This document shows positions 5,010 through 50,450 of a stretch of DNA of 51,608 bases, one piece after another. The stretch comes from a virus. The DNA is taken from the IMG/VR virus record IMGVR_UViG_3300020215_000010. One strand, 5' to 3'. Under the pieces are notes generated by a model. The model was not told the origin of the DNA and made no database searches. It saw nothing but the letters and a program-made list of their open reading frames with translations. Each line of letters begins with the position of its first letter. The first letter of the stretch is position 1. A program made the position numbers and the translations under genes.

Positions 5010-5243
5010 ATGGCAATGGCTGATTTCAAACGGATGGCGGAGGAGTACGCGGCGGCATTTCGCGAGAAGCAGTCGAAGGCGCTCCTGTTCTACACGGAAG
5101 CGACTGGCGAATTTATGGGGCGGGTGACCAGCGATGCCTACCTCGCTGGCGTGAACGCGGCGCTGGAAGCGGCGGCGAAAAGAGTGGCGACGGAGTCCGA
5201 TTACTTCGCCACCGCCATCCGCGCCCTCAAGCCCCAGCCATAG
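5010..5243 (+). CDS. hypothetical early protein
   Basis: Track ORF 5001..5243 (TTG); ATG at 5010 or 5016 more likely. Confidence 0.5.
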   Translation: MAMADFKRMAEEYAAAFREKQSKALLFYTEATGEFMGRVTSDAYLAGVNAALEAAAKRVATESDYFATAIRALKPQP

Positions 5244-5251
5244 AAAGGACA

Positions 5252-5551
5252 ATGAACGACATGGGCGCGCGATATGAAGTCGGCATGAACGTTGTGTGTG
5301 TGGATGCATCGATTGAGCCGGGCCAGCAATGGGAGACAGGCGCCGAACTGCACGAGCGCTCCGTCTACACCATCGCCACGATTATCCCAGAATACAACGG
5401 GAAGGTTGGCTTGCTGCTTGAGGAAACCCGGCGCGAGGATGGGTGGGCATACCGCGCCTCTCGCTTCCGCCCGTGCCAGCGCACCGACATCAGCGAGCTA
5501 AAGAAATTGGTGGTCAACCCGCCGCGCGAACTCGTGCGCGAAACCGCCTAG
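5252..5551 (+). CDS. hypothetical early protein
   Basis: 99-aa ORF, GAAAGGA upstream. Confidence 0.55.
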   Translation: MNDMGARYEVGMNVVCVDASIEPGQQWETGAELHERSVYTIATIIPEYNGKVGLLLEETRREDGWAYRASRFRPCQRTDISELKKLVVNPPRELVRETA

Positions 5552-6362: not shown

Positions 6363-6850
6363 TCTGGCAGCTCTCACATAGAGCGGATCGCGCGGCCCTC
6401 CCCTTGGCTGACCGGCATTACAACCGGCAGAAAGTCGGCTCGCCGCAATTCGTCCCGCCCGGCCGCTGCATCGTCCTGCTGTCTCGCTGCGAGCGGGCCT
6501 TGTGGGTCACCAGCTGGCCCTTCGCGGAGTACGTCCGCCACGAATGGGCGGGCGCGTGGGTCAATAGCCTGTTCCGCAACGAAGGTGCTGGCCTCTCCAG
6601 CGAGCTTATCCAAGAAGCGGTGTCTGTGACGCGGCATTTCTGGGGCGACGGCCCCGAGCCACACGGCATCATCACCTTTGTAGATGCTGGCGAAATCCGC
6701 AGCACCAACCCGGGCTACTGCTACACGCGCGCCGGCTGGAAGCACATCGGCTTTTCCAAGGGTGGCCTCAAGGCGTTCGGGCAGGCCCCCGCCGAAATGC
6801 CTGCTGCTGAGCGCCCCTACTCCCCTCAAACGGAGTTCGCCTTCGCATGA
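6359..6850 (+). CDS. hypothetical enzyme-like protein; possible GNAT-fold Mom-like family (tentative)
   Basis: ATGA-coupled ATG 6359; ADRHYNRQK near the N-terminus and ITFVD...NPGYCYTRAGWKHIGFSKGG near the C-terminus. Confidence 0.5.
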   Translation: MIWQLSHRADRAALPLADRHYNRQKVGSPQFVPPGRCIVLLSRCERALWVTSWPFAEYVRHEWAGAWVNSLFRNEGAGLSSELIQEAVSVTRHFWGDGPEPHGIITFVDAGEIRSTNPGYCYTRAGWKHIGFSKGGLKAFGQAPAEMPAAERPYSPQTEFAFA

Positions 6851-6929
6851 TCTACCCCCTCACTTACCAGCCCCAATACGCAACAGGCGAGAGGGTCGGC
6901 AGCAACTACAGGATCGTGGATGCGGAGCA

Positions 6930-7778
6930 ATGATGATGCGCGAGCCGATTGAACGAGACCTTTTGGAGGAACCGATGCCCGATACAGGAACCGAGATCGC
7001 CGTGGCCGCGCCCGAGAAGGTGCCGGCCCTGCCGGCCGAGGCCCCCGCCAGCCCCGTGCTGCAGGCCATCATCGCGCTCGCCAAGGACCCGTCCGTGGAC
7101 GGCGCCAAGTTCAAGGACCTTGTCCTCCTGCAGGAGCATATGGAGGATCGGCAGGCGGTCGCCGCCTTCAACGCCGCCTTCGTCGTGATGCAGCCGAAGC
7201 TCCCGAGGATCAAAAAGAACGGCGTCCTCGAATACCCGGTAGACAAGAACAAGCCGGAAGGGGCCAAGCGGAAGGTCGCCAACTTCGCCACCTGGGAGGA
7301 CATCGACGCCGAAATTCGGCCGATCCTCACCGAGCACGGGTTCGCGCTGTCTTTCAGTCGGACCATCGAGGGAAGCACTCTGACCGTGACCGCCGTCCTG
7401 CGGCACTCGGCGGGGCACTCGACCGAAACCCCCGGCCCGCCCCTGCCCTGCGATTCCTCGGGCGGCAAGAACAACATCCAGGGCTGGGGCTCGGCCCTGT
7501 CTTACGGCAAGCGCTACGCGGCAACCATGGCCCTCAACATCGTCACCGAGAATCAGGATGACGACGGCAAGCTGGCGGGCATGTCCTTCCTCAAGTCGGA
7601 GCAGATCGAGGATTTGAGAATCCTGATCACCGAGACCGGCACCGACGAGCGGCGCTTCCTTGACTTGTTCGGGGTGGCCGATCTGGCCGATCTCCAGCAA
7701 AGCCACCATGTCGTGGCCCGCAACATGCTGCTGCAGAAGCGCGAGATGGCCAGCAAGAAGAAGGGCGCCGGGGCGTGA
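6930..7778 (+). CDS. erf: ERF-family single-strand annealing protein
   Basis: GWGSALSYGKRYAATMALNI motif; ATG triplet at 6930. Confidence 0.75.
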   Translation: MMMREPIERDLLEEPMPDTGTEIAVAAPEKVPALPAEAPASPVLQAIIALAKDPSVDGAKFKDLVLLQEHMEDRQAVAAFNAAFVVMQPKLPRIKKNGVLEYPVDKNKPEGAKRKVANFATWEDIDAEIRPILTEHGFALSFSRTIEGSTLTVTAVLRHSAGHSTETPGPPLPCDSSGGKNNIQGWGSALSYGKRYAATMALNIVTENQDDDGKLAGMSFLKSEQIEDLRILITETGTDERRFLDLFGVADLADLQQSHHVVARNMLLQKREMASKKKGAGA

Positions 7779-8509
7779 AGCTCTACCTCAACTTCGCGCA
7801 GGGCTCCGAGGACTGGTACCGGGCGCGGCTCGGCATACCCACGGCTTCGTCATTCGACCAGATCGTGACGCCGAAGAAGTGCGAGCCCTCCAAGTCCGCG
7901 GCGCGGTATGCCCTCAAACTGGTGGCCGAACGGCTGCTCAATATGCCGACCGATTCCATCGAGGGTCAGGCATGGATGGAGCGCGGCAAGGAGCTGGAGC
8001 CCGACGCCGTGCTGCAATACGAGTTTACCCACGAGGTGAAAACCGTCCCGGTCGGCTTCATCACCACGGATGACGGGAGAATCGGCTGCTCGCCTGACCG
8101 TATCGTGCTCAACGACCAGCGTATCGGACTGGAGATCAAGTGCCCGGCCCCGCACGTCCACCTCGGCTACCTGTTTGCCAACCTGGCCGACGAGTACAAG
8201 CCGCAAGTTCAGGGACAAATCCTCGTGGCCGAACTCGACCACGCGGACCTGTACTCCTATCACCCCCGGATGCCCCCGGCCCTGATCCGGTCGGAGCGCG
8301 AGGGCGACTACATCGCCAAGCTATCCGAGGGGCTTAAGGAGTTTGTCCATCTTCTGGACGACATGACGGAGCGGGCCAAGAAGCTCGGGGCCTATCAGGC
8401 CCTCCCGCGCCCGGCCAGCCCGCCAGAGGTTTACGAGGCGCAAGTCATTCACCGGACGCTTGAGGACGAGACTATCGCAACCTTCGCCAAACAAGGATTT
8501 GAGGCATAG
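7775..8509 (+). CDS. YqaJ-type (lambda Exo-like) recombination exonuclease
   Basis: [20 protein letters not shown]-terminus, LEIKCP motif; GTGA overlap with erf. Confidence 0.75.
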
Positions 8510-8511
8510 CC

Positions 8512-8967
8512 ATGGCTGGATCGGTCAACAAGGTAATCATCGTTGGCAACCTCGGGCGCGACCCCGAGGTCAAGACGTTTCAGAACGGCGGCAAGGTCTG
8601 CAACCTGTCCGTCGCCACCTCCGAGAACTGGCGCGACAAGGCGACCGGCGAGCGCAAGGAGCGCACCGAGTGGCACCGCGTCGCCATCTTCAATGAGCGC
8701 CTGGTCGATGTGGCCGAGAAGTATCTGCGCAAGGGGGCGAAGGTCTACCTCGAAGGCCAGCTTGAGACCCGCAAGTGGACGGACCAAAGCGGCGTCGAGA
8801 AGTATTCGACCGAGGTTGTGCTTCGCCAGTTTCGCGGCGAGCTGACGATGCTGGACAGCGGGCAGCGGCGCGACGAGGAGGACGACTCCCAGGCCGACTA
8901 CGGGGCGGCCACGGGCAAGAGCGAGCGTCGGCCGGTTGGCGACCTCGACGACGATATCCCGTTCTGA
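8512..8967 (+). CDS. ssb: single-stranded DNA-binding protein
   Basis: [17 protein letters not shown]-fold start, TEWHRV, acidic DDDIPF tail. Confidence 0.9.
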
Positions 8968-13286: not shown

Positions 13287-13640
13287 GTGGACGACCCCTG
13301 GCTGACAGCAGACGAGGCCGCCAAGGAGCTGCGCTGTTCCCCGGGAACGGTGCGCCGGGAGCGGCTGGACGGCAGGCTCGGCTATGCTACCGTGCGCGGC
13401 CGGGTGTTCTACCCCCTCTCCCAAATCGAAGCCTACAAAGCGGCACAGGTTAAAGCGCCATGCCAGACTACCGACTCGCCAAGATCCCCGGCAGTCCCCG
13501 TTGGTACATCACGTGGACCGAGGGACACCGTAGCTTTCGCAGAACGACAGGCACGGCGGATCGCGAGCAGGCTACCCAAGTCCTCGCGGCTTTCGTCCTC
13601 GAAGCTGCGCGTGGTCCAGTCGTCGAACCGGCCGACGTAG
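13287..13640 (+). CDS. excisionase-like HTH protein
   Basis: WLTADEAAKELRCSPGTVRRERLDGRL MerR/Xis-type HTH; directly upstream of int; tail overlaps int by 181 nt. Confidence 0.6.
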   Translation: MDDPWLTADEAAKELRCSPGTVRRERLDGRLGYATVRGRVFYPLSQIEAYKAAQVKAPCQTTDSPRSPAVPVGTSRGPRDTVAFAERQARRIASRLPKSSRLSSSKLRVVQSSNRPT

Positions 13641-14641
13641 AGGTTCGGGAGGTGCTGGAAACCTACTACCGCGAGCACGCCTCCAAGCGCCCCAGCGCCG
13701 AACAGGCCAGGATCGCCAAGGCGCACCTGATTGCCTTCTACGGTGTGGCCCGGGGCACGGCCGTAACCGCAAAATCTCATTCTATGTATGAGGAAAAGCG
13801 GCGGTTGCAGGGGGCCGGGTTCCAGACCATCAACCGGGAGCGCATGGTGCTCCGGGCGGCCTTTAATCACTCCCGCAGGCACCACGGGCTGACCGTGGTC
13901 CCCTACGTGCCGACCATCCCAGAGGATCACCCGGACAACGACCCGGTAGAGCCCAAGGGCAGGCCGCTGAAGCTGGGCGAGGTGACGGCCCTGCTCAAGG
14001 CGTGCGCCTACGTCCACGAGTGGCGGTTCCTGCAAATGCTGATCGGCACCCTCTGCCGGCCGGATGCCGCCTTCGACTTCGAACCCGACAAACAGGCCGA
14101 CTTCGAGCACGGGCTTATCGACCTGAGCCCGCCGGGTCGGAAGCAGACCAAGAAGTTCCGGCCGGTGGTGCCCATGCCGCGATTCCTGCGGGATGAGTTC
14201 AAGCGGGCCGGCAAGGGGCCGTTTATCGCGTATCACGGGGAGGGCATCCGAAGCAGCAAGACGGCGTTCCGCCGGATGCGGGCGGATGCGGGGCTGGATG
14301 AGAGGGTCAACCCCTACTCGCTCCGCCATACGATAGCGCGGGAGCTGCGCCGTCGCGGGGTCCCGGGCGACCAGATCAGCATCATGCTCGGCCACCGCCC
14401 GCCGAACACCAAGCGGACCGACCTTATCTATGCTCCCTACGAGCCCGGCTATTGCCAGGATGCGAAGCGGGCCATCGAATCGATATGGGCTACCGTTGCG
14501 CGCAACTTGCGCGCTCCGGCCGGGCCTGCGGAAATCTTGAAACCTGCAAGAAAGGCCCGTAGAATAATGGTGGGTGCGACAGGGATTGAACCTGTGACCC
14601 CTACCATGTCAAGGCACCGCCCTAGGTTTCAGAGGAGCTAA
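13460..14641 (+). CDS. int: tyrosine integrase
   Basis: YSLRHTIAREL (HxxR), MLGH, LIYAPY catalytic region; arm-type N-terminus; last about 25 codons run through the attP core. Confidence 0.85.
   Translation: MPDYRLAKIPGSPRWYITWTEGHRSFRRTTGTADREQATQVLAAFVLEAARGPVVEPADVEVREVLETYYREHASKRPSAEQARIAKAHLIAFYGVARGTAVTAKSHSMYEEKRRLQGAGFQTINRERMVLRAAFNHSRRHHGLTVVPYVPTIPEDHPDNDPVEPKGRPLKLGEVTALLKACAYVHEWRFLQMLIGTLCRPDAAFDFEPDKQADFEHGLIDLSPPGRKQTKKFRPVVPMPRFLRDEFKRAGKGPFIAYHGEGIRSSKTAFRRMRADAGLDERVNPYSLRHTIARELRRRGVPGDQISIMLGHRPPNTKRTDLIYAPYEPGYCQDAKRAIESIWATVARNLRAPAGPAEILKPARKARRIMVGATGIEPVTPTMSRHRPRFQRS
14568..14614 (-). other. attP core: 47-nt 3' part of a tRNA-Val(GAC)-like gene (anticodon loop to CCA), not a complete tRNA
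   Basis: Minus strand reads TTGACAT loop, GGTAG, GGGTC, ACAGG-TTCAATC-CCTGT T-arm, CGCACCC-A-CCA; the 5' anticodon-stem partner is absent. Confidence 0.75.
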
Positions 14642-14675: not shown

Positions 14676-15143
14676 ATGTCAGAATCAGGCAGATCAAACC
14701 GCGAACAGCGCGCAAGTTGCGCGCGTTGCATTTACTTCGTCCGGGCGGGGGCCAAAGGGCCGGTCAAGATCGGGTATGCCGTCAGCGTGGCGGAGCGGGT
14801 GGCGCTCCTACAAACCGGGAACCACCTCCCCCTGCTGCTCCTCGGCGTCTACCCCGGGACGGTAGCCCTTGAGTCGATGCTTCACGCAAAGTTCGCGCGC
14901 GAGCGCATACGCGGCGAGTGGTTCAAGCCGAGCGCCCGGCTACTGCGCTACATCGCCAACCTGAACACCGACTTCGATGCTCACGGCCACGACAAAATTT
15001 GGCGGGAGGAGATGATTAAGCGCATGGCCCGGGAGCACAGAGACGAAGGCTACCGTAAACGGGCGGCCCGGTCCTTCGGCATCAAGCTGCCCGGGAGGCC
15101 GGCGTTGCCGGGCGAAGGGCAGGGCCGGGTATCAGCGGTATAA
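14676..15143 (+). CDS. T5orf172 / MUG113-type (GIY-YIG superfamily) domain protein
   Basis: IYFVRAGAKGPVKIGYA...LQTGNHLPL...LHAKFARERIRGEWF. Confidence 0.65.
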   Translation: MSESGRSNREQRASCARCIYFVRAGAKGPVKIGYAVSVAERVALLQTGNHLPLLLLGVYPGTVALESMLHAKFARERIRGEWFKPSARLLRYIANLNTDFDAHGHDKIWREEMIKRMAREHRDEGYRKRAARSFGIKLPGRPALPGEGQGRVSAV

Positions 15144-16676: not shown

Positions 16677-17186
16677 TTACTTGCGAATCAGCGCGTCGGT
16701 TTTCTGGATGCTGCCGTAGCTCGATCCCGTCCAGAAGGCGATGACACCGCCGAGGGCTGCCAAGAGGGAGCCGGCGTACAGCATGGCCAGGTCTTTGTTC
16801 CCGGCCGGGATCGCATCCGTGAAGATATAGTAGCCCATGGCGCAATTCGCGATGACCACGGCGAGAGACACGGCAGCCGCGCCCCAGGCGAGCTTTGAGC
16901 CCTGCCCCGCCAGCGTCACCATCGTGCCCCGGGCGTTCTGGATATCCGCCAGTACCGCCCGCATGACTTCGGTGTGCTGTTCCTGAACCGCCTTCTGGAA
17001 TTCGATCAGCTTGTCCGGGTTGGCCTTCAGGGCTTCGATCAACTGGTCCTTGGGCGTGCCCGGCAGGACGGCGGAGGCGATATCGACAACCTTCTGCGCG
17101 TTCTCCTGCACCTTGGAGCCGCCGAACCAACCAGCCACTATCGGAGCCAGTTGCGCAAGGCCGAGGGCTATGGTGATGGGGTCCAT
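16677..17186 (-). CDS. holin (3-TM, GTA-holin-like)
   Basis: Hydrophobic N-terminus plus two C-terminal TM segments; directly after the endolysin; last gene of the late operon. Confidence 0.6.
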   Translation of the reverse strand: MDPITIALGLAQLAPIVAGWFGGSKVQENAQKVVDIASAVLPGTPKDQLIEALKANPDKLIEFQKAVQEQHTEVMRAVLADIQNARGTMVTLAGQGSKLAWGAAAVSLAVVIANCAMGYYIFTDAIPAGNKDLAMLYAGSLLAALGGVIAFWTGSSYGSIQKTDALIRK

Positions 17187-17191
17187 GCAAG

Positions 17192-17491
17192 CTATTCCTT
17201 CGGATCGTACTCAAGGTGGATGTGGGTGGCTTCAAGGATCACGTCGTAATTCCTTCCCAGCGTTGCCTTGATGGCGGCCACCACCGCGTCTTTCTTCTCG
17301 TCCGGTATGTGCTTCGAGCGGATGTCCACGGCGAATCCCTTGTAGTGCAGGGAGCCTTGCTTGTGCTTGCCGTCGAGGCAGGCCGTGAGGGTGAACTGTC
17401 CCGTCCCTTCCATCAGGTGATGGATCTTGGCGCAGGCTTCCAGTATCTCGGGCTGTACGCCGTTCATATCGACGCCGGGCTTGAGGTTCAT
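17192..17491 (-). CDS. endolysin, peptidase M15 (VanY-like zinc peptidase)
   Basis: SLHYKGFAVD (H-x6-D) and THIHLEYD (HxH) zinc ligands. Confidence 0.7.
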   Translation of the reverse strand: MNLKPGVDMNGVQPEILEACAKIHHLMEGTGQFTLTACLDGKHKQGSLHYKGFAVDIRSKHIPDEKKDAVVAAIKATLGRNYDVILEATHIHLEYDPKE

Positions 17492-17754
17492 CGATCCGTC
17501 ACCATCACGCCGGTCCGGGCATAGCCGGCGATGTCCTGCCACGAGTCCAGATGCGCCGGGTTCTCAATCAATCGGGATATCTTGACCGCGATGCTGTCGA
17601 GCGCCTCCCTCGCTTCTGGGTGCGGGCACTCGGCAATGATGGCCTTGAGCTTCTGGATGCGGGCGAAGTTGGCCGAGGGGTGGCCGTAGTCCTCCCCCCT
17701 CACCCGCACGAGGTCCTGAACGGCAGCGTCGAATTTGGCTAGGCGTTCGCTCAT
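17488..17754 (-). CDS. DUF6378-like protein
   Basis: VRVRGEDYGHPSANFARIQKL pattern; ATGA-coupled at both ends. Confidence 0.5.
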   Translation of the reverse strand: MSERLAKFDAAVQDLVRVRGEDYGHPSANFARIQKLKAIIAECPHPEAREALDSIAVKISRLIENPAHLDSWQDIAGYARTGVMVTDR

Positions 17755-18131
17755 GCGTAGACCCTGACGATGTTGTCGGGCACGATGCCGGGCGTCATAT
17801 GGATGATCGGCTTGCCCCATTTCTTGAACCAGCCGATTTCCTGCGTGACGCCGTGGCTGGTGTCCCAGCCCTCCAGCAGCAGGACGAGCAGCACATCGGA
17901 GCGGGCGGCCAGAGCCTCATCGACCCTTAGCCACAGTTCGTAGTCCCTGCGGTTGACCGGCGTATCGTGCGCGTGGGCAATCGGGCAGAACACGTTGAGT
18001 CCGGCTGAGAGAAGCAGCCCGTGGTTGGCGCGGGCCAGCCTTGCGGCTTCGTCCAGTCCGCCGGGGAACTTACTGTACGGGCTGGCGAGATAGAGGAGCG
18101 GTTTCACGTTATCGGCCTTACCTTTCGCCAT
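17751..18131 (-). CDS. DUF1937 / nucleoside 2-deoxyribosyltransferase-like protein
   Basis: LYLASPYS...VFCPIAHAH...LLLEGWDTSHGVTQEI. Confidence 0.55.
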   Translation of the reverse strand: MAKGKADNVKPLLYLASPYSKFPGGLDEAARLARANHGLLLSAGLNVFCPIAHAHDTPVNRRDYELWLRVDEALAARSDVLLVLLLEGWDTSHGVTQEIGWFKKWGKPIIHMTPGIVPDNIVRVYA

Positions 18132-18575
18132 TTACGATGGCGCTTCACGGATTGAGATTGCCTTGACGCTGCCGCCACAGCCCTCGTCGCAAAGGATGGC
18201 GATCTCAACCGCTCGTCTGGCGTCGGCGCCCATGTGCATTGCGGCGGTCGCAGCGACGGCACCGGAGCCGATGGCATAGAACTCGTCCTCAATGGGGACG
18301 GATATCCGCTCGTCCTCCCACTCTTCGAGCTTGCCGTCCGGGGAGAGGACGAGGGCATGGAAGCGCTCGCGGTCCTTCTCGGCAAAGGTCGGGCGGTCGC
18401 CCTCGTTTTCGAGGAACCGCTTGAACAGGTAGAAGTTCGTCGGGTTGCCGGCGAAGCCGCAGATACGGCCATCCGATAGCTGGAATACCTTGGTCCCGTA
18501 TGACTTCAACCCACGGTCCCCGGTGAACAGAGTGTCGGCAGCGAGGATGCCGGCGCGGTAGGCAATGATGGTCAT
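18132..18575 (-). CDS. HslV / proteasome-beta-like Ntn peptidase
   Basis: Met-Thr start (MTIIAYRAGILAADT), GFAG, YAIGSGAVAATAAM align with the HslV TTIV..., GFAGG, AIGSGG blocks. Confidence 0.6.
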   Translation of the reverse strand: MTIIAYRAGILAADTLFTGDRGLKSYGTKVFQLSDGRICGFAGNPTNFYLFKRFLENEGDRPTFAEKDRERFHALVLSPDGKLEEWEDERISVPIEDEFYAIGSGAVAATAAMHMGADARRAVEIAILCDEGCGGSVKAISIREAPS

Positions 18576-19612
18576 GCTTTGGCCCGCTTGCGCCGAAAGC
18601 GCAGGTAGTCCACCGCCTCGTCCATGTCGGCAAAGCACTGGACGAATCCCGCCATGCTCTTGGCCTCGGGATCGATGATTGCGGTGATCGCCGCGCCTTC
18701 CTGCTGACCGGCGTGCCCCAGCTTCTCCGCGTGATCGTCGATGAACTTGTAGCCGCGCGAGCGGATGAGCCAGTAGACGAAGCCCTTGGACGCGGACTCC
18801 TCCTGATGCACCGCCCAGTTATGGGTGTGCCCGGCCGCATAGATATCCGCCGCGTCCTTGGTGTGTGCGGCTTTCTGGGGGCCGTGAAGGGTGTTCCACA
18901 TCGAGTGGCCGGCGAAGTTGTGCGCGGCCCAGACCCGGCACTCCCTCCCCTTGGGAAACACCAATCTGAACTGGGCCTGCCAGTCGTGCATCGGGACGAC
19001 ATGCCCGGCCATCGCCTCAAGGATGGCGGCGCCGTCGTTCCAGTCATCGTGGTTGCCGAAGAGGTTGGCGAGCCAGGTCACACCGCTATCGAGAAGCAGC
19101 CACTTGGCGAGCTTGCGGGCGGAGGACTGCGAGGTGTCAGACTTTGCCGCCAGCCGAAGGAGCCGGCCCATCCAGTTGTCCGTGGTGTCACCGATGTTGA
19201 CCGCGAACAGGGCGTCGTTCTTCCGGTGCAGGTCGCAATGATGATCGAGCAGCGGCCAGTTGCAGCCGTTGTTATCGACGTGCGGGTCTCCGAAGAACGA
19301 GACGCCGATGGGCCCCGCGACGTTGACCTTGATCGGGAACCATTTGCGGGCAGTGGCGTGGGCTTCCCGTTTGACGAACCTCTTCTTGTTGATCTCGATC
19401 AGGTCGCGGACAGGTAGATCGTCCTCGGGGAACTCCGGCAGGGTGATGGGTTTGAGCGAGTCCTTTCGCGCCAGCGCGTTCACCAGCCGGCTACAGAAGG
19501 TCTTGCGGTTGAGGCCGAGGAGCTTTGCCGCCTCCGTCTTGTTCCCCTCGCAAGCCTCCAGTGCGTCGATTGCTTTCCTACAGTCATCGTCAGATAGGGC
19601 GGCCTGGGTCAT
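18572..19612 (-). CDS. Fis-type HTH fused to a calcineurin-like metallophosphoesterase
   Basis: GNKTEAAKLLGLNRKTFCSRL HTH; GDPHVD, GDTTDN, GNHDD, GHTH phosphoesterase motifs. Confidence 0.7.
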   Translation of the reverse strand: MTQAALSDDDCRKAIDALEACEGNKTEAAKLLGLNRKTFCSRLVNALARKDSLKPITLPEFPEDDLPVRDLIEINKKRFVKREAHATARKWFPIKVNVAGPIGVSFFGDPHVDNNGCNWPLLDHHCDLHRKNDALFAVNIGDTTDNWMGRLLRLAAKSDTSQSSARKLAKWLLLDSGVTWLANLFGNHDDWNDGAAILEAMAGHVVPMHDWQAQFRLVFPKGRECRVWAAHNFAGHSMWNTLHGPQKAAHTKDAADIYAAGHTHNWAVHQEESASKGFVYWLIRSRGYKFIDDHAEKLGHAGQQEGAAITAIIDPEAKSMAGFVQCFADMDEAVDYLRFRRKRAKA

Positions 19613-19870
19613 CTACTCGCCCCCTCGTCCGCCCTGCCGTCTTTGCTCGGCCGCGACGAGGAAGCGGACTTGGGCTCTCAGTTCCGCGATGTCCGCCGCG
19701 AAGCCTTCCATGCGATCCAGCCGCCGCTCGATCTGGGCCACGGCGGATTTCTGGCCGCCGTTTGCCTCGGCCACCGCGTAGGCCGCTGTCAGGATGGCGA
19801 GGACGACGCCCACCGCCTGCCAGTTGATCTTGCCGTTGCCGTTACGGCGCTCGTTGCTGGGGTCGCTCAC
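19613..19870 (-). CDS. N-terminal TM plus coiled-coil protein (i-spanin-like architecture)
   Basis: WQAVGVVLAILTAAYAV TM then heptad-like region; GTGA-coupled start 19870. Confidence 0.45.
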   Translation of the reverse strand: MSDPSNERRNGNGKINWQAVGVVLAILTAAYAVAEANGGQKSAVAQIERRLDRMEGFAADIAELRAQVRFLVAAEQRRQGGRGGE

Positions 19871-20256
19871 GACGGCTGCCCCGGCCCGCGCTTGAGCTTC
19901 TGATAGTCTTTCTGCGCCCAGCCCTGCGTTGTGACCACGCATCCTTCGTTCGAGACGATCACCATCACGACATCGGGGAAATGCGGGGAGAAAAACGTGG
20001 TGATCAGGTCAGCCGTTTCGTTCGTCGGGGGCGGTTCCTCGTTCCACGCCTCCATAAATCTGGTGGCTGCTTCGCCGGTCAAGGTCTCGGCGATCTGAAC
20101 GTCGGGCGCGGACATTTGTATGCGCGCGACTTGGATTGCGAGTGGAAAACAGCCCTGGCTGTGACCCGGCGCACTTCCGAGAAGCAGCGGAATCAGGCAG
20201 GCTATATAGGCCGATGTACGTCGGTAGGCGGGGGATCTGAGCGCGCGTAGGATCAT
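19867..20256 (-). CDS. secreted/periplasmic protein
   Basis: ATG 20256; signal-like YIACLIPLLLGSAPGHS. Confidence 0.45.
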   Translation of the reverse strand: MILRALRSPAYRRTSAYIACLIPLLLGSAPGHSQGCFPLAIQVARIQMSAPDVQIAETLTGEAATRFMEAWNEEPPPTNETADLITTFFSPHFPDVVMVIVSNEGCVVTTQGWAQKDYQKLKRGPGQPS

Positions 20257-36197: not shown

Positions 36198-36404
36198 CTA
36201 TTCGTCCTTCGGTAACTCGTTGCTAAGCTGGAGGGGCAGCTCCCTGAGAAAGTCCGCCACTTCCCGCCATCCCTGGACCTTGCTCAGCCTGTCCTGCGTA
36301 GCTGCCGTCTTCCATGCCTGCTCCGGGAACCTCCGGTCCAGGGCGGCCAGCACCCACCGGGTCGTCGGCTCCTGGAGCCAGTCCTTGAGCGTTTGCCTGT
36401 CCAT
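36198..36404 (-). CDS. hypothetical protein (68 aa) nested over the portal 3' tail
   Basis: GC3 very high in this frame and about half in the portal frame over the same bases. Confidence 0.55.
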   Translation of the reverse strand: MDRQTLKDWLQEPTTRWVLAALDRRFPEQAWKTAATQDRLSKVQGWREVADFLRELPLQLSNELPKDE

Positions 36405-38331
36405 TCATCTGCATCCCTTGGTTCATCACCCCCGACATCATCACCGCATGGGCCTTGACGTGCTCCATCAGCAGCGAGCGGCCGAGCGAGGACAGCGCCG
36501 ATACCGGGTTGTTCAACTCCGCCATGTGAAGTTGGAGGTGCATCTGGTGGTCCTGGTCCGGGAAGGCCATCGGCATCATCGGCGTCTGCTGGAGCGCCAG
36601 TAGATTTTCCATCCCCGGATCGTCGATCCGCATCATCATGGTATTGCCCGGGTTGGGCAGGATTTCGTCGATGTTCTCCGACTGCATCGCTTCCAGGTAA
36701 CGGCGCGAGGCGTTGTAGAGGTGCTGGGGCGAGTTCAGGACCAGCGGGTTGGTTGACAGGAACTGCCACTCCGCATTTGCTTTTGTAAGCCGCTGCTGCT
36801 CCGTCGCCATCTTGGGGTCGGCAACCGGAAGGATCTGAAGGTCGGGCGCGTAGTCCTCTCTCGCGACGGTGAACTGCTTGAGTTCCCCGGCGACATCGAG
36901 GACCGCGAAGTATTCCTTCGGGTCGAGGAATTTGTGGTTGAGGCGGTAGAGCTTTGAAAGCTCGTTCGACCACGCCTCGTTGATCCGCTCGTAGACCGAG
37001 GAGAAGACCTGTAGCGACTGCTCGATAAGAGCCAGCAAGGCGGTAGGCTGAACAACCTTGTCGGTCTGCCCCGTGATCGCCTCGGTTACCGTTGCCAATC
37101 GGTCGGAGCGGGCCGCGAGCAATTCGATGGCCTGGAGCATCGAGACCTGGGGGCCGGGATACTTGGGGACCCAGATGCCCTTTTGCAAATCTTCCACAGA
37201 GCCGGGGACCTTGACGAACTGGCCCAGCTTCATCTGGATTTCCCGGCCTTCGATGCCCCCAAGCTGCTGGGACATGAATCCGGAATTGTTGCCGACATTG
37301 GCCAGCGTGGCCGCGTCGATGAACTGGCGGAGAAGCTTGTTCACGCTCGCGTTGGGCTGGGAGATCAGATGCCCCAGTCCAAGGCCATAGAACCCGTCCG
37401 GGTTCTCCATATAGGGGTAGTGGGTGAAGTACTCGACTGGCTCCTTGTCCGCCGTGGGATTACCCAGCTCATCCGTATCGTAACGGACGACAATGCGGAG
37501 CACCTTCCGGGTCGCGGCGTCAACCGTGACGACGTAGGGCTCCTCTATTCCATCGTCGTCCAGATCGAGCAGCCGGTGCTGCTCCAGCAGGACCACGGGC
37601 TGATAGACGATCATCCCGGGCTCGGTCAGGCCATGCGACTGGTCGTGCGCCCGGTCGATGTTGTTCTTGGCCTCATCCCATACAGCGGGAGTGCCTTCGT
37701 CGATGAAGACGCCCTTCTCCTTGAGGATGCGCGTCTTGTTGACCGACATACGGATGATGTGCGTCTTGCGCTCTATGTCCTCCAATTCACGGGGACCCAC
37801 CCCGTAGGAAACCGTGAGGTCGATGGCGCGGACGTTATCGACGATGTTCCGCTTGCGGGCCGGGCAGTAGTACGACTTGGTGAACACCGAGCCGTGGAGG
37901 GGAACGCCGAGCAGAAGGCGGTCCTTGCCCCGCTTGTAGAGCTTGTCCTTGACGGTGCACTGCCAGGCCATATGCGCGCCCACGCGCTTGGCCCGCTCAA
38001 TCGAATGGGAGTCGTCCTTGCCAACCGGGATGGCCTTGATGAAGTTCCGGCTGGGGAACATGGCCTTGTAGGCTCTGGCTGCAAACTGGGTGCAGCCCTC
38101 GGCCAGCAGCGGTAATGATTCGCTCGAAGAGCCTTCCCACGGGGGGTTCTTCGGCTTGTCGTCCTGGTAATACATCTTGAGCCAGAAAGCGTGCTTCTCG
38201 ATCCATTGCTTTCTTGACTCCTCGTCGTGCCGCCACTCCTCGTAGACCCGGTTGCCGATCTCGGTCAGTTCTTTCTCGTCGAGCTTTGCCGCGATATTCC
38301 GTGTTTCTGGGTGCAGGAATTCGTCGCTCAT
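36223..38331 (-). CDS. portal protein
   Basis: 702 aa; PPWEGSSSESLPLLAEGCTQFAARAYKAMFP resembles the podovirus portal N-region; position upstream of scaffold and capsid. Confidence 0.7.
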   Translation of the reverse strand: MSDEFLHPETRNIAAKLDEKELTEIGNRVYEEWRHDEESRKQWIEKHAFWLKMYYQDDKPKNPPWEGSSSESLPLLAEGCTQFAARAYKAMFPSRNFIKAIPVGKDDSHSIERAKRVGAHMAWQCTVKDKLYKRGKDRLLLGVPLHGSVFTKSYYCPARKRNIVDNVRAIDLTVSYGVGPRELEDIERKTHIIRMSVNKTRILKEKGVFIDEGTPAVWDEAKNNIDRAHDQSHGLTEPGMIVYQPVVLLEQHRLLDLDDDGIEEPYVVTVDAATRKVLRIVVRYDTDELGNPTADKEPVEYFTHYPYMENPDGFYGLGLGHLISQPNASVNKLLRQFIDAATLANVGNNSGFMSQQLGGIEGREIQMKLGQFVKVPGSVEDLQKGIWVPKYPGPQVSMLQAIELLAARSDRLATVTEAITGQTDKVVQPTALLALIEQSLQVFSSVYERINEAWSNELSKLYRLNHKFLDPKEYFAVLDVAGELKQFTVAREDYAPDLQILPVADPKMATEQQRLTKANAEWQFLSTNPLVLNSPQHLYNASRRYLEAMQSENIDEILPNPGNTMMMRIDDPGMENLLALQQTPMMPMAFPDQDHQMHLQLHMAELNNPVSALSSLGRSLLMEHVKAHAVMMSGVMNQGMQMNGQANAQGLAPGADDPVGAGRPGPEVPGAGMEDGSYAGQAEQGPGMAGSGGLSQGAAPPA

Positions 38332-43957: not shown

Positions 43958-44150
43958 GCAACACCGGGATATCGAACTCCACTCGCGGCCATAGCGTGAA
44001 CGAACGGCCGTCGCCATCCGGCGTGGCGAAGTATTCCAGTGCCAGGCGTTGCGCTTCCCATTCGTGCGGCGCGGCGACGACGTAGGAGACGCGCTTTCTG
44101 GTCCCCGTCCCGGAGACAAAGGTGACGGGGCAGCGCCAGGCGGTTGTCAT
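43950..44150 (-). CDS. hypothetical protein (66 aa)
   Basis: ATGA overlap with the terL stop. Confidence 0.45.
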   Translation of the reverse strand: MTTAWRCPVTFVSGTGTRKRVSYVVAAPHEWEAQRLALEYFATPDGDGRSFTLWPRVEFDIPVLHD

Positions 44151-45649
44151 GACAGGGCGTAGGGGTCCTCGGTCTTCCCCCTGGCGCGCTTCATGTCTTC
44201 ATGGTTCTCGGCAAGCCAGCGGTCTTCTTCGGTCGTCACGAAAGGCCTCGATCTCAAGGCATAGGCCACTTCGTCATAAACGTGATTCTCATCCGAGGGC
44301 TTATCCCCCGGCCCCTTCTCGCCATCGATCTCGTCGAGCAATAGGGTGGGGCAGGTTCTCCAGAACTGGGTACAATCAGCCGTGACAAAGAACATCGGGT
44401 CGTTGAAGGATTCGCCTGTTTCGAGATAGCGGTCGTTGCCCGCTAACCTTGAGATCACCTCGTTGTAGTTCCGCTTGCGGTCCTTCTTGGCTTTTCGCAT
44501 CACCAGGCGCGGATCGGTCTGGAACAGGGTTTCTGCGACACATGTACCCCCCCGGTCGGCCCACATCTCCGTGTCCCCGACCCGGTAGTCCATGCGCTCG
44601 CCCATGCGCTCCAGCTCACGCTTGATGATGCCCTTCCCCACTTCCTGGGGACTCAGCCTCAAGCCTTCGTTCGGCCGGCCGTTCCAGCCGTACCATTCGG
44701 CGTAGCGGATCAGGGCTCCGGCCGGTAACCAGCGGCTCGGCCAATTTCCTTTTGCCGCAAGCTCAACCCCCTCGCTGACGCAGTACCAGCCAATCGAGAA
44801 GGGGCGGACGACGCCCCAGTCGATGACCATGAAGCGTGTCCAGTGCTTCGGAGGGGTAAAAGCCCTCAACATATGCCTGTCGCGGGACAGGTTGAACAAA
44901 GCCTGCCCAACCACCGCGTCCCAGTCGCCCTCTCGTAGCTGCTTCGCCAATTCCGGCGGCAACCCCGAGAACTGACCGGCATACCCCTTATCCAGATAAC
45001 TGTTGTCCTGCATCCGGGCGGGGATATAGACCGTCGCCCAACCCTTCGATTCAGGATCCGAGGGGTCCGACATCGTCTTGTCCCAGAACAGCGTCTCCGC
45101 CGGGGCAGGGTCGATCATGGTTTTTTTCAGGAACGAATGACCGGGGCCGCCGGGGTTCGAGCACAGCACCACTCTTGGCAGCAGATGCTTGCAGGCTTCC
45201 GCGGGTTTGTATCTTCCCAACCGGACGCGGGTTCTCAGATAGTTGATCTGGAACGCCGTTAAGTGTGCCGCCTCATCGATCCCGAGCCAGTGAATCTCGG
45301 CGCCTTGGTACCGGGTGACATCGTCCTCTTTTTCGCAGTACGCGAGGTTGATCCCGGCCCCGTTGTAGAACTCGAACCGCTTCTTGGTGTCGTTGTAGGA
45401 CCCCAATTCAGTGGGGATCTCCGCCTTGATCTTGCGGATGTGGTTCGCCTCGAGCTCCGGCAGGGTCCGCCTGAATATGAACGCATCCAGCCCGGGGTTG
45501 CTGAGGCAGAAGCCTATCGCGTCCCACCTCAGGCTGTGCGACTTCCCGCCTCCCGCAGCACCCCCATAGAAAATCTGCCGGGCCAGGGACGCGTGTAGCA
45601 GCCTCTGCCGGCTCTGCGGCTCATAGTCGAGCCGTATCGTTTGCTGCAA
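44147..45649 (-). CDS. terL: terminase large subunit
   Basis: Walker A GGAAGGGKS, IDEAAH Walker B-like; 500 aa; TTG start per track. Confidence 0.85.
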   Translation of the reverse strand: MQQTIRLDYEPQSRQRLLHASLARQIFYGGAAGGGKSHSLRWDAIGFCLSNPGLDAFIFRRTLPELEANHIRKIKAEIPTELGSYNDTKKRFEFYNGAGINLAYCEKEDDVTRYQGAEIHWLGIDEAAHLTAFQINYLRTRVRLGRYKPAEACKHLLPRVVLCSNPGGPGHSFLKKTMIDPAPAETLFWDKTMSDPSDPESKGWATVYIPARMQDNSYLDKGYAGQFSGLPPELAKQLREGDWDAVVGQALFNLSRDRHMLRAFTPPKHWTRFMVIDWGVVRPFSIGWYCVSEGVELAAKGNWPSRWLPAGALIRYAEWYGWNGRPNEGLRLSPQEVGKGIIKRELERMGERMDYRVGDTEMWADRGGTCVAETLFQTDPRLVMRKAKKDRKRNYNEVISRLAGNDRYLETGESFNDPMFFVTADCTQFWRTCPTLLLDEIDGEKGPGDKPSDENHVYDEVAYALRSRPFVTTEEDRWLAENHEDMKRARGKTEDPYALS

Positions 45650-46308: not shown

Positions 46309-46505
46309 TGGCTCTGCCCCTCAGAGCCGCACATCGGGCATGGCGTGACTGGTACCCAGCAGTTATCGGCCGCGTTTAGCCAGTGCGGTCCCTTGTCGGT
46401 GACGATAACCACCAGGCCGTTCCATTCCGTGACGCGGCTTATGTGGCCATCGAACACGGGGCCGACTTGCGACATGCCGCTGCGCCTCTGGGGCTCGTCG
46501 GTCAT
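46305..46505 (-). CDS. hypothetical protein with C-terminal CPMCG
   Basis: 66-aa ORF, ATGA-coupled to terS. Confidence 0.5.
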   Translation of the reverse strand: MTDEPQRRSGMSQVGPVFDGHISRVTEWNGLVVIVTDKGPHWLNAADNCWVPVTPCPMCGSEGQSQ

Positions 46506-47182
46506 TCCGCCTGCCCCTCTATCACAATAGCATTGTCCCCCGGCTGTTCGGCCCTGGGGATGTTGAGCACAACCTGGATGTTTACTCCGCCCTTGCCTGC
46601 TGATTCGGGGGGCTTGAAGTCGTCTCGCGTGTGGGCCGATCTCTCAACGAGATAGGCTCCTGCCTTCCAGTCGCCTCGCTTTCGGGCGTCGTGGATGTCG
46701 GTCAGGTTGTCCCGCCTGAACTTGGCCTTGGCCCCCTCGACGAGGGCCAAGAATTCGGGGTCGTCCTTCTTCCAGTTCAGGATGGTCTGATCGGATACGC
46801 CTGCGTGCTCCGCGGCCCGGGCCTCTGATAGCCCCAACTCCAGATCCGTAACGATCTTGGCGATGGTCTCGGGGGTCTTCTTGCCCCAACCCCTCATGAC
46901 CGCTACCGAGCGGGGGACCTTGATGTTCGGTACTTGCGCCTGTGCTTGCGCGATGGCTTGGAGCGCTTGCGACGCTTGCATCCCCCTTGCGGCCTCTATC
47001 GCCTCGGGGCTGGCGCCTTTTACCCAGTGTTCCCGCCTGGCCCGGTCGTCTATCGCCTGGCGGGTGAGCTGCCTGCCATCGGGGAGAGCTGGCAATGTCT
47101 TGGCAATCGCGCTCGATCCCTCTCCTGCACACCAGCGCCTTTGGATGGTTGCCCAGTCAGCGGGTGCGGTGGGGAATGGCAT
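46502..47182 (-). CDS. terS: terminase small subunit
   Basis: Two HTH-like segments (GSSAIAKTL; LSEARAAEHAGVSDQTILNWKKDDPEF); position. Confidence 0.6.
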   Translation of the reverse strand: MPFPTAPADWATIQRRWCAGEGSSAIAKTLPALPDGRQLTRQAIDDRARREHWVKGASPEAIEAARGMQASQALQAIAQAQAQVPNIKVPRSVAVMRGWGKKTPETIAKIVTDLELGLSEARAAEHAGVSDQTILNWKKDDPEFLALVEGAKAKFRRDNLTDIHDARKRGDWKAGAYLVERSAHTRDDFKPPESAGKGGVNIQVVLNIPRAEQPGDNAIVIEGQAE

Positions 47183-48619: not shown

Positions 48620-49146
48620 GCCGCCCTCGCCGCGTCATACCCGAAATGCCGGGCCAGCGCTGTCAGCCCATTGAGAAGCGATAATCTCTCCGCCTCCGCC
48701 ATCGGCGTTACCAGCCTCACACGCCTGACCCAATTGGGGGTGTCGAGATACACAGCACAGCGCATGACGACGTGCAGGGATGAGCTGCCGGCGGTCTTTA
48801 GGGCGTTCACCGCATTGAGATAGGCGATCTCCTGCCGCTCGTCCCTGGCTGATCCGGGTTCAGGGGGTGTTGATCCTGAATAGAACCCACTGACCATGCG
48901 CTTGTAGACCTCGCACGCCCAGCCCTTCGGCCGCCCGTAGACCTGGTATCTCAAGCGGCATAGTTCTTTAGCTGACCTCGCCTGCGCCTCGCTGATGATT
49001 CCAAGGCGGTGCATCACGTCGATGGGGTTGTCGTGCTGGATGCTCGCATCCCCGCTGGCCTCTAGCCGGTGTCTACGCAATTCGTCGGTTCCTTTGTCGA
49101 TCAATGGGCGGAACTTGTAACGCTTGGTCTTTCTCGGCCGGCTCAT
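48616..49146 (-). CDS. hypothetical protein
   Basis: ATG 49146 with GGAGAGG upstream. Confidence 0.5.
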   Translation of the reverse strand: MSRPRKTKRYKFRPLIDKGTDELRRHRLEASGDASIQHDNPIDVMHRLGIISEAQARSAKELCRLRYQVYGRPKGWACEVYKRMVSGFYSGSTPPEPGSARDERQEIAYLNAVNALKTAGSSSLHVVMRCAVYLDTPNWVRRVRLVTPMAEAERLSLLNGLTALARHFGYDAARAA

Positions 49147-50450
49147 GCTGCTGCCTCTCCGGTGCGGGAATTCTGGCGTGCCCAGTCGAGTCCTGCGTCT
49201 AGTTCGCTGTCGCGGTCGTATCCCGCTTGCTCCGCCACTGGCGCATGATCTCGGCCACACGCTGGCGCTCCGCCTCCGTTGCTTTCGGGGATGGCCCTTC
49301 CACCGGGCAGCGCTTGGCCATCTCCAGCTTGAGCAAGAGCGATCTCCGCTCCGCCATCTGCTCGGCTACCGAGTTCAGGATCTCGCTCGGTAAGGGCAGC
49401 CTCATGCCCCATTTGTGCGTTGCCCGGATGGTCCTGAACGCCTCCGCGAGCAGGTCGGGCGGCAGGTGGCTCAACGCTTCCGTGTAGGACACCGCGGCGG
49501 TTTTCAGGTCGCTTGCCGGGATGCTGAACGCCTTGGCCCAATCCCCGAGTTTGCGAATCTCCACCGCCAGGATTTCCGGCGTCGTCGGTTCGAGCTGGCG
49601 CTTCGCCGCATACAGCGCCACCGGCACCATCGCCGCTTTCGCCGCTGGTATGCGCTCCTCGCTGCTCACGATACCCAGCAGCCACCCCCGCAAGGATGTC
49701 AGCGTTCTCGCGGCTTCGTGCGGATTGTGAATCTTCGGCAGTGTGGTCATCGTAGTTGCCTTCCATCACGCGGGTAAATCCACGCTGCGACACGAGAAAA
49801 TCGAAGGTGCAGCGCCAGTTCGGATTGCTCTTCGAGGGCTTGTCCCCGGTCAGCCAGGGGTTCACGGCGATCTTTTCGAGCGCCGCCTGCCAGCCGAGGA
49901 TGCCCCCGGATTCGCGCAAGCGGGCCGCCAGCGCCGCGCGCCGTGCGTCGGTCAGGCGTTGGACAGCGGGCAATCGAGGAAAGCGGCTTGCGAGTTCGTT
50001 CCAAGCCTCGACGGCCAGCGGAACCTCGCTTTGGACGGGGTCGGGCAAATTCTTATTTGCCCCTTGCCTCTTATCTCCCTCTGTCTCTGCTCTGTCTCTG
50101 CTCTGTCTCTCTCTCTGGTCTAGCGCCTTGCTAGCAGATTGCTCCACTGGCTTTGGTTCTTCTGGAGCGCCTTGTTCGACAATGATAAATCCAGCTTTCG
50201 CCAAGGCGTCGAGATCGACGGGCTCGCGCGCCCCAATCTTCCCGCCGACCCAAACTGCATCGTATGGAATACGGTTGTCGGAGCGACTTGCTAGCAACCA
50301 GATAGCAATTAAGTGTGCCTTGCTGGCGTCGGCCAAGGACGCAAAGTCGTAATCCTCCAGAATTCGCCCGTAGAGCTTGATCCATGGCGGGGAGCGGTCC
50401 CGGTAGTGCTGGAACTCGTCAAAGTTCTTGACGGAGAAGAAGCGGGCCAT
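49143..50450 (-). CDS. replication-organizer-like protein; conserved part 49750..50450, then an about 200-codon run-on frame
   Basis: MARFFSVKNFDEFQHYRDRSPPWIKLY N-domain and NPWLTGD...WRCTFDFLVSQRGFTRVMEGNY C-domain; no stop until 49143. Confidence 0.5.
   Translation of the reverse strand: MARFFSVKNFDEFQHYRDRSPPWIKLYGRILEDYDFASLADASKAHLIAIWLLASRSDNRIPYDAVWVGGKIGAREPVDLDALAKAGFIIVEQGAPEEPKPVEQSASKALDQRERQSRDRAETEGDKRQGANKNLPDPVQSEVPLAVEAWNELASRFPRLPAVQRLTDARRAALAARLRESGGILGWQAALEKIAVNPWLTGDKPSKSNPNWRCTFDFLVSQRGFTRVMEGNYDDHTAEDSQSARSRENADILAGVAAGYREQRGAHTSGESGDGAGGAVCGEAPARTDDAGNPGGGDSQTRGLGQGVQHPGKRPENRRGVLHGSVEPPAARPARGGVQDHPGNAQMGHEAALTERDPELGSRADGGAEIALAQAGDGQALPGGRAIPESNGGGAPACGRDHAPVAEQAGYDRDSELDAGLDWARQNSRTGEAAA
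49199..49750 (-). CDS. hypothetical replication-module protein
   Basis: 183 aa; GC3 very high in this frame; GGAAGG upstream of the ATG. Confidence 0.6.
   Translation of the reverse strand: MTTLPKIHNPHEAARTLTSLRGWLLGIVSSEERIPAAKAAMVPVALYAAKRQLEPTTPEILAVEIRKLGDWAKAFSIPASDLKTAAVSYTEALSHLPPDLLAEAFRTIRATHKWGMRLPLPSEILNSVAEQMAERRSLLLKLEMAKRCPVEGPSPKATEAERQRVAEIMRQWRSKRDTTATAN
50079..50110. repeat. 11-bp tandem repeat CTCTGTCTCTG x about 2.9 inside a coding sequence
   Basis: Read directly; encodes the QRERQSRDRAETE linker. Confidence 0.8.

Follow-up and report, generated by a model that had tools for sequence, protein, structure and literature searches.

A four-gene block around a predicted gp47-like metallophosphoesterase near the lysis genes of a temperate phage

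A block of four enzyme genes between tail and lysis genes

The IMG/VR virus record IMGVR_UViG_3300020215_000010 is a stretch of 51,608 nucleotides (the window, to which all coordinates refer unless a locus is named) that comes close to the full genome, some 51.6 kb long, of a temperate phage. Four minus-strand genes between its tail genes and its lysis genes are the subject of this report. They encode a phosphoesterase with an N-terminal helix-turn-helix (HTH) domain, here called PE, an HslV-like peptidase, a DUF1937 protein of the nucleoside 2-deoxyribosyltransferase-like (NDT-like) clan, and a DUF6378 protein. The linkage of these families does not appear to be accidental, and pairings of them recur in unrelated phage lineages. 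L-numbers denote other phage loci with which the window was compared. The four genes are as follows, with lengths in amino acids (aa).

18572..19612, minus strand: PE, HTH plus metallophosphoesterase, 346 aa (family matches, alignment and AlphaFold model)
18132..18575, minus strand: HslV-like N-terminal nucleophile (Ntn, threonine) peptidase, 147 aa (phrog_1040 match)
17751..18131, minus strand: DUF1937 protein, NDT-like clan, 126 aa (Pfam and phrog_355 matches)
17488..17754, minus strand: DUF6378 protein, 88 aa (Pfam and phrog_474 matches)

A preliminary description made from the sequence alone had placed these genes within 17488-19612, between tail and lysis genes, and the genes are real. 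An independent gene caller, applied to identical public contigs, also gives the 346-, 147-, 126- and 88-aa genes, as well as the 99- and 169-aa genes that follow them. The GC content at third codon positions is 0.80-0.84 in all four, as in the neighbouring genes, and they are therefore taken as real coding sequence without compositional anomaly.

The genes are tightly packed. ATGA-type overlaps, which the preliminary description had assigned to the whole block, join PE to the HslV-like gene and DUF1937 to DUF6378, whereas the HslV-like and DUF1937 genes abut without overlap (TAAATG). The HslV-like protein begins with MTIIAY, and the upstream GTG of the mechanically derived open reading frame (ORF) is not its start. 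The DUF6378 gene had been given 110 aa. Its family assignment stands, but its length is 88 aa, since the ATG at 17754 yields the ATGA junction and the 110-aa ORF from 17820 overlaps DUF1937. A sequence scan found no promoter-like or terminator-like site inside the operon block. A terminator-like hairpin lies at 16675-16660, 3' of the last gene of the operon.

The domain assignments were reproduced by family matches to HTH_8, phrog_7339, phrog_1040, DUF1937 and DUF6378. None of the four proteins carries a motif that indicates a structural or lytic role, as had been supposed; all have the signatures of enzymes.

The phosphoesterase and its probable relation to Bxb1 gp47

In PE, a Fis-type HTH at the N terminus (approximately residues 8-48) is followed by a long helix that serves as linker and by a calcineurin-like metallophosphoesterase (MPE) domain. 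It matches HTH_8 in Pfam at 4e-8 and phrog_7339, annotated as "DNA repair exonuclease," at 1.6e-26. The five metal-binding motifs of MPE enzymes are present as GDPHVD, GDTTDN, GNHDD, GHS and GHTH, and those previously listed (all except GHS) fall on invariant columns of an alignment of 25 homologues. Residues D109, H111, D142, N187, H188, H231, H262 and H264 are invariant in this alignment. The family with the same HTH and MPE layout comprises 505 proteins in a set of 5.8 billion, and it occurs on 442 IMG/VR contigs.

The AlphaFold model of PE has a pLDDT of 85.5. Its best PDB matches by Foldseek are PolD DP1, LpxH and Mre11, with a probability of 1.00 and TM-scores of only 0.37-0.50. These top fold matches are nucleases and LpxH, and not 2H or metallo-beta-lactamase (MBL) phosphodiesterases. 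Many phage MPEs match the model in BFVD. A search of PDB sequences with the PE profile found no solved-structure relative.

Bxb1 gp47, L5 gp54 and A10ZJ24 gp48, which belong to phrog_221, are calcineurin-like MPEs that share all five motifs with PE. Bxb1 gp47 is the recombination directionality factor (RDF) of a serine integrase, and its nearest structures are also PolD DP1, LpxH and Mre11 (PMC11795197). Phosphoesterases of the gp47 type have phosphodiesterase or nuclease activity, including a weak exonuclease activity (PMC11795197, PMC12287305). A10ZJ24 gp48, an early phosphodiesterase, inflicts damage on the genomic DNA of the host, which prevents the induction of anti-phage genes and so acts as counter-defence, and it is needed for the phage to replicate its DNA in M. 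tuberculosis (PMC12287305). Given these published roles, a broad theme of nucleotide or DNA processing, possibly with counter-defence, is a reasonable one for the block. The earlier statement that no described system resembles it was too strong, as the enzyme at its core falls within a superfamily of phage phosphoesterases that has been studied. With one superfamily member studied and the component families catalogued, the block is not categorically new.

PE matches phrog_7339 only and not phrog_221, the family that gp47 itself matches at 4.5e-116. Alignment of the PE profile by hhalign with three HTH-bearing phrog_221 members plus gp47 gives a probability of 81.6% and an E value of 1e-5 over 213 columns, including the HTH. 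The MPE of L222 matches both phrog_221 (5e-25) and phrog_7339 (1.8e-4). PE is probably a distant relative of the gp47 family that works in a similar manner, and not a member of phrog_221. Bxb1 gp47 has a DUF6378 gene (gp49) two genes away, and PE is likewise linked with DUF6378. Unlike gp47, PE carries the Fis-type HTH and a linker of ~100 residues, and it lies at the end of a late operon by the lysis genes, whereas gp47 lies in the early replication arm. Since the integrase of this phage is a tyrosine integrase, a role for PE as an RDF of a serine integrase is not expected.

Two other assignments of PE were considered and rejected. The motifs of a lambda-type protein phosphatase, GDxHG, GDxVDRG and GNHE, are absent, and PE has GDPHVD, GDTTDN and GNHDD in their stead; no match to the PPP family was found in Pfam or NCBIfam. 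Lambda NinI, a PPP-family protein of the nin region, is also a phage-borne calcineurin-fold enzyme, but PE is no PPP member and has the additional HTH. Because of its HTH, and because the large terminase gene (TerL) directly follows it in seven relatives, PE was also weighed as a small terminase subunit (TerS), but this phage has separate TerS and TerL genes. The position before the large terminase gene usually holds a small terminase or an HNH accessory nuclease. In L039, L066, L093 (2613-4918) and L099 (3124-5204), it is an HTH-phosphoesterase that lies immediately, or nearly so, upstream of that gene.

Metallophosphoesterases include cyclic-nucleotide phosphodiesterases, and NDT-like enzymes hydrolyse the N-glycosidic bonds of nucleotides. 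These activities would suit a counter-defence module, as raised in the preliminary description, that destroys immune signals or NAD-derived products (as in CBASS, Thoeris or Pycsar). In such a module, cyclic or linear nucleotide signals would be cleaved by PE, and N-glycosidic bonds by the NDT-like protein. We regard this as quite improbable. A gp47-family enzyme does have a reported counter-defence phenotype, but the mechanism reported for it is degradation of host DNA and not hydrolysis of signals (PMC12287305). PE has a DNA-binding HTH, its fold is nearest to the DNA nucleases PolD DP1 and Mre11 and to LpxH, and its partners occur in replication or nucleotide-metabolism modules of other phages. 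The PADLOC defence models have no match at E <= 0.01 for eight proteins of the block and its flanks, nothing specific to the degradation of cyclic-nucleotide or NAD-derived signals was seen, and NCBIfam gave nothing informative for the block proteins.

Recurrent linkage and fusion in other phages

Cluster A mycobacteriophages, a Pseudomonas D3-like phage and many phages known from metagenomes have a DUF6378 gene near a gp47-type phosphoesterase. In Bxb1 the order gp47-gp48-gp49 corresponds to an MPE, one small gene and DUF6378 (gp49, 1.7e-29). In L104 and L145, a phrog_221 HTH-MPE is followed by DUF6378. Pseudomonas phage IME307 has a PDDEXK nuclease, DUF6378, a PE homologue and antiterminator Q, in that order; in lambda, ninI likewise stands directly upstream of Q. 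Single-sequence phmmer searches undercounted partners, and co-occurrence was therefore counted with profiles and jackhmmer. Of 80 IMG/VR loci ascertained by DUF6378, 20 contain an MPE, which in 15 cases is no more than 1 kb away, and 24 contain an NDT-like domain. In 20 of these 24, the NDT-like and DUF6378 domains share one ORF.

The fusions in L200, L221 and L222 are confirmed by Pfam, with DUF4406 at the N terminus and DUF6378 at the C terminus. A phrog_221 MPE directly follows the NDT-like::DUF6378 fusion in ~10 of the 20 loci, inside a replication module that runs from RusA to a helicase. L221 and L222 are of this kind, and in L222 the phosphoesterase gene is flanked by RusA and a DEAD/ResIII helicase. 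Separate adjacent NDT-like and DUF6378 genes are present in the window, L037, L042/L087 and L146. In L087, PE and DUF6378 are followed downstream by two distinct NDT-like genes (7711-8058 and 8485-8856), one a DUF4406 gene and the other a second small NDT-type gene. Gordonia phage Vendetta has DUF7768, one small gene and DUF6378, with a phrog_284 phosphoesterase a few genes upstream.

The HslV-like gene is also associated with phosphoesterases. Twenty-six distinct loci were collected, 16 of which have enough flanking sequence to be judged, and a phosphoesterase is directly beside the HslV-like gene in 8 of these 16, in both gene orders. The adjacent enzymes belong to four families: phrog_7339 (window, L006 and L008), phrog_221 (the L093 group), phrog_704 (L097) and phrog_284 (the L099 group, L129 and L140). 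A simple regular expression for the MPE motifs missed L129 and L140, which were recovered by means of the PHROGs. In L147, a 418-aa protein with MPE-like motifs but no PHROG match is upstream of the HslV-like gene, and DUF6378 is in the same operon; the evidence for this MPE is at the level of motifs only. A conserved protein of ~100 aa that matches no family is located beside the phrog_284 phosphoesterase and the HslV-like gene in L099 (1752-2048) and in L140 (735-1040), which are unrelated loci with different gene orders.

Two loci combine PE, DUF1937 and DUF6378 with a SprT-like protein and lack HslV: L146, where the SprT-like protein is a metallopeptidase, and L037, where the order is PE, DUF6378, DUF1937, SprT-like. 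Thus, the families do show conserved pairwise linkage in other genomes. In the literature, we found no description of an association of gp47-like phosphoesterases with DUF6378, NDT-like proteins, or HslV-like or SprT-like peptidases. Nor did we find a description of NDT::DUF6378 fusions, or a paper on DUF1937.

The HslV-like peptidase

The HslV-like protein matches phrog_1040, "peptidase HslV family," at 1.4e-32. Its score against the Pfam Proteasome family is below threshold (20.4 bits, with a cut-off of 22.4), and the profile of its family matches solved HslV structures in the PDB at 7e-11. Among 35 homologues, M1 and T2 are nearly invariant, and D14, K29 and the loop G103-S104-G105 are invariant or nearly so. 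The phage protein thus retains Thr directly after the initiator Met, together with counterparts of Asp17, Lys33 and the GSG loop in HslV/ClpQ and proteasome beta subunits. It is ~30 residues shorter than cellular HslV (147 versus ~175 aa), and no HslU-like AAA+ ATPase was found by Pfam or PHROG among the genes of the block or its flanks.

In contrast to HslV, the phage family phrog_1040 is found beside phosphoesterases or inside head and packaging modules. In L096 (1827-5624), the order is TerL, HslV-like, portal, and in L098 (3301-6238) the HslV-like gene comes after TerL. The HslV-like gene is among capsid and connector genes in L092 and L094, and no phosphoesterase is nearby in any of these four loci. 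Therefore, the peptidase may have a second context that is related to the virion.

The DUF1937 protein

The DUF1937 protein matches its Pfam family at 5.5e-10 (40.3 bits, with a cut-off of 23) and phrog_355 at 1.5e-13. It also resembles PDB entry 1T1J, a structural-genomics protein, over residues 13-108 (E 2e-3). The clan to which it is assigned comprises NDT, DNPH1/Rcl, DUF4406 and DUF1937, with 1T1J as a structure. Similarity to PF05014 (Nuc_deoxyrib_tr) and DUF4406 is weak. The match to PF05014, at 2.9e-5 and 24.6 bits, is below the curated cut-off of 28.8 that marks the true NDT family. The Glu of the C-terminal motif "GW..S.G...EI" is kept in the block protein and is invariant in four DUF1937 homologues. 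The block protein, and NDT-like proteins in many other phages, are paired or fused with DUF6378.

The DUF6378 protein

The DUF6378 protein matches its Pfam family at 4.1e-11 (43.4 bits, with a cut-off of 27.1) and phrog_474 at 8.4e-17. It is predicted to be all-alpha, with four helices, and its conserved residues are R19, K58, R61, D70, D74 and Y78. The AlphaFold model is poor (pLDDT 66), Foldseek returned nothing at E < 1, and a profile search of the PDB gave only noise. That the protein is MazG-like is a guess.

At least 695 phage records have a DUF6378 match, and 557 of them are Mycobacterium phages, including Bxb1-like genomes of ~50 kb. The usual neighbours encode nucleases and enzymes of the nucleotide pool: PurZ/DatZ/MazG, VRR-Nuc, PD-(D/E)XK, PolA and primase. 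DUF6378 stands at the end of the PurZ/DatZ/MazZ or MazG cluster in Alteromonas phage ZP6 and Burkholderia phage BCSR129, and it is beside MazG in RcTitan. Moreover, phrog_12019, which is annotated as MazG-like, matches the NDT-like half of an NDT::DUF6378 fusion. In contrast to these nucleotide-pool editing clusters, the block in the window includes no PurZ, DatZ or MazG homologue, and there is no indication of a modified genome.

In GenBank and in PHROGs (phrog_474 and phrog_1167), DUF6378 proteins are widely annotated as "phosphofructokinase," for example Bxb1 gp49, Vendetta gp72, RcTitan gp54 and CRP-810 gp30. We found no support for this name, which is routine across at least 695 phage records and looks like a propagated misannotation.

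The variable slot downstream of PE

The position of PE is fixed across its relatives. Tail fibre genes come first, and after them small membrane proteins, PE, variable genes, an endolysin of changing type, a holin-like gene, and then integrase or TerL. The slot after PE holds a GNAT gene, MazG-like genes and small unknowns in relatives. In L037 (8345-9474), what looks like a pair of IS3-type transposase genes (90 and 270 aa) directly follows the SprT-like gene, so the slot also accepts insertion sequences.

Several observations weigh against a functional unit. Over 101 loci, the 505 predicted ORFs of this hypervariable slot form 415 clusters, and the first gene downstream of PE alone forms 73. 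Co-location could thus partly reflect a common insertion hotspot. The closest relative, whose PE is 84% identical, lacks the HslV-like, DUF1937 and DUF6378 genes, and only in copies of this phage did the exact set of four turn up. Among 100 loci ascertained by PE, DUF6378 is present in 17, an NDT-like gene in 5 and an HslV-like gene in 2; none has all four. In tblastn searches of 50,697 isolated phages, the matches for PE (4 records), the HslV-like protein (4) and DUF1937 (6) have no record in common. Taken alone, these counts would lead to rejection of a four-gene system.

Other points lie in the same direction. The HslV-like component may be dispensable, because it is apparently frameshifted in L226, a 99.1%-identical phage variant from another sample. 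There (5030-5490), a 1-bp deletion in a run of C residues shifts the frame midway and the gene caller skips the gene, which may reflect either a fault of assembly or a function lost naturally. The block stands at the end of a late operon beside lysis genes, whereas the trio of families is in a replication module in most other phages. The relation to gp47 is seen at the level of profiles only, and the PE profile against gp47 alone is weak (probability 5%). The functions of the phrog_7339 PE family, DUF6378, DUF1937 and the phage HslV-like family are predicted ones. Fisher tests on the locus sets gave p = 0.03 and p = 0.007, values that are only indicative and that overstate independence because many of the counted loci are related contigs.

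Perhaps, then, PE is conserved in its phage group and the HslV-like, DUF1937 and DUF6378 genes are unrelated cargo in a hypervariable slot, with no joint function. The turnover of the slot and the scarcity of the full set among relatives fit this explanation, as does the presence of HslV-like genes in head and packaging modules that lack an MPE. We nonetheless hold it to be unlikely. Chance insertion does not readily account for proteins in which NDT-like and DUF6378 domains are fused. The partners adjoin phosphoesterases of four PHROG families, in different lineages and at different positions (replication module, nin region and late-operon end), and L146 and L037 repeat the four roles with another peptidase and another gene order. 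A stronger argument for linkage than the Fisher tests lies in the fusions and in the variety of phosphoesterase families involved. Of the module suggested by the preliminary description, what holds is the pairwise linkage, which recurs with fusions in unrelated phages; a conserved four-gene system does not.

Genome setting and flanking genes

The same sequence recurs as 51,622-bp contigs in several metagenome samples. At the DNA level, the block and its flanks have no match in the 50,697 isolated-phage records. PE relatives in bacterial genomes are mainly in Alphaproteobacteria, for example Bradyrhizobium, Rhizobium, Aestuariivirga and Reyranella, and the phage is a temperate phage of alphaproteobacteria. 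Its landmark genes are the following.

49143-50726, minus strand: replication initiator
46502-47182, minus strand: TerS
44147-45649, minus strand: TerL
36223-38331, minus strand: portal
6684-7778, plus strand: ERF
7775-8509, plus strand: YqaJ
13460-14641, plus strand: tyrosine integrase
14676-15143, plus strand: MUG113/T5orf172 gene

The minus-strand genes run in the order replication initiator, TerS, TerL, portal, tail genes, block, endolysin and holin-like gene, and the plus-strand genes (ERF, YqaJ, integrase and MUG113/T5orf172) converge on this array. The block is flanked upstream by a tail-type protein (phrog_553), a secreted protein and a small protein with a single transmembrane (TM) segment. 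The immediate neighbours are as follows.

19867..20256, minus strand: protein with an N-terminal signal-like hydrophobic segment, 129 aa; no Pfam or PHROG match
19613..19870, minus strand: single-TM coiled-coil protein, 85 aa; its stop abuts the PE start; no Pfam or PHROG match
17192..17491, minus strand: probable small LAS/M15-type endolysin, 99 aa; motifs HYKGFAVD and HIH; weak Pfam HH_signal match (0.002)
16677..17186, minus strand: holin-like membrane protein at the operon end, 169 aa; phrog_1544 match at 1.3e-23

The 85- and 129-aa genes are also given by an independent gene call. The 85-aa gene abuts PE (TAGATG), and DUF6378 overlaps the 99-aa endolysin gene by ATGA, a junction by which the endolysin gene is predicted to be translationally coupled to DUF6378. 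The basis for calling the 99-aa protein a LAS/M15 enzyme is the HxxxxxxD ... HxH signature and the weak HH_signal match only. The 169-aa protein resembles a holin-like cluster of relatives that is of the gene transfer agent (GTA) type. In L091, L104, L089, L005 and L127, the endolysin is swapped non-orthologously and the holin-like protein stays similar. The endolysin types at this position in relatives are Hydrolase_2, GH24 lysozyme, Peptidase_M15_3 and SLT-like, and the type in the window is LAS/M15-like.

The region between tail genes and integrase in temperate phages often holds exclusion or defence genes. The block might accordingly be expressed from the prophage, with the HTH-nuclease attacking incoming DNA in superinfection exclusion or defence. 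The phage is temperate, the block is near the end of the late operon and the integrase arm, the integrase is often just downstream of PE in relatives, and some HslV-like loci adjoin RhuM or SocA-type genes. Nevertheless, the idea is very improbable. Translational coupling appears to join the block to the upstream late genes as well as to the downstream endolysin gene, no promoter-like site lies between, and PADLOC gave no matches. The same gene sets occur in replication modules of other phages, some of which have no integrase in the stretch examined.

Proposed function and significance

On balance, we favour, with some reserve, the reading that the block is an accessory DNA- or nucleotide-processing unit around a gp47-like phage metallophosphoesterase. 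From the genes, their domains, the conserved catalytic residues, the operon packing, and the recurrent linkage and fusion, we infer candidate substrates, an order of action or direction of flux, and a benefit, which may be in replication, salvage or counter-defence.

PE would be a DNA-directed nuclease or phosphodiesterase that is guided or tethered by its N-terminal HTH and that cuts or trims DNA. Its target might be the chromosome of the host or else intermediates of replication and recombination, in line with the reports on gp47 and gp48. The NDT-like and DUF6378 proteins would act as a pair, or in other phages as a single fusion protein. Through N-glycosidic cleavage or base exchange, for instance, they would convert deoxynucleotides or nucleosides released by the nuclease, or else work on the nucleotide pool. 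The HslV-like protein would be an optional partner of the phosphoesterase, with a SprT-like peptidase replacing it in other phages. The peptidase probably processes or controls the nuclease, or else a protein that is bound to the DNA substrate of the nuclease.

A bolder version is doubtful in our view. In this version, the block is one form of a widespread, undescribed phage system with four roles (gp47-like DNA nuclease, HslV-like or SprT-like peptidase, NDT-like N-glycosidase and DUF6378), whose peptidase can be exchanged through non-orthologous displacement. That an Mre11/DP1-like nuclease is paired with a SprT- or proteasome-type peptidase is suggestive of the clearing of DNA-protein adducts or blocked ends. 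Such a system would clear protein-blocked or damaged DNA and recycle nucleotides, and if this is true, it would serve phage replication or escape from host attack on phage DNA.

Phosphoesterases of the gp47-like kind are present in many phage lineages, and in mycobacteriophages they are essential or determine host range. These enzymes repeatedly travel with DUF6378, NDT-like proteins, and HslV-like or SprT-like peptidases, which gives them concrete partners and provides hypotheses on four families that can be put to the test. Should the partners modulate a nuclease that degrades host DNA, or feed nucleotide salvage, they would bear on replication strategy, host range and the engineering of phages for therapy.

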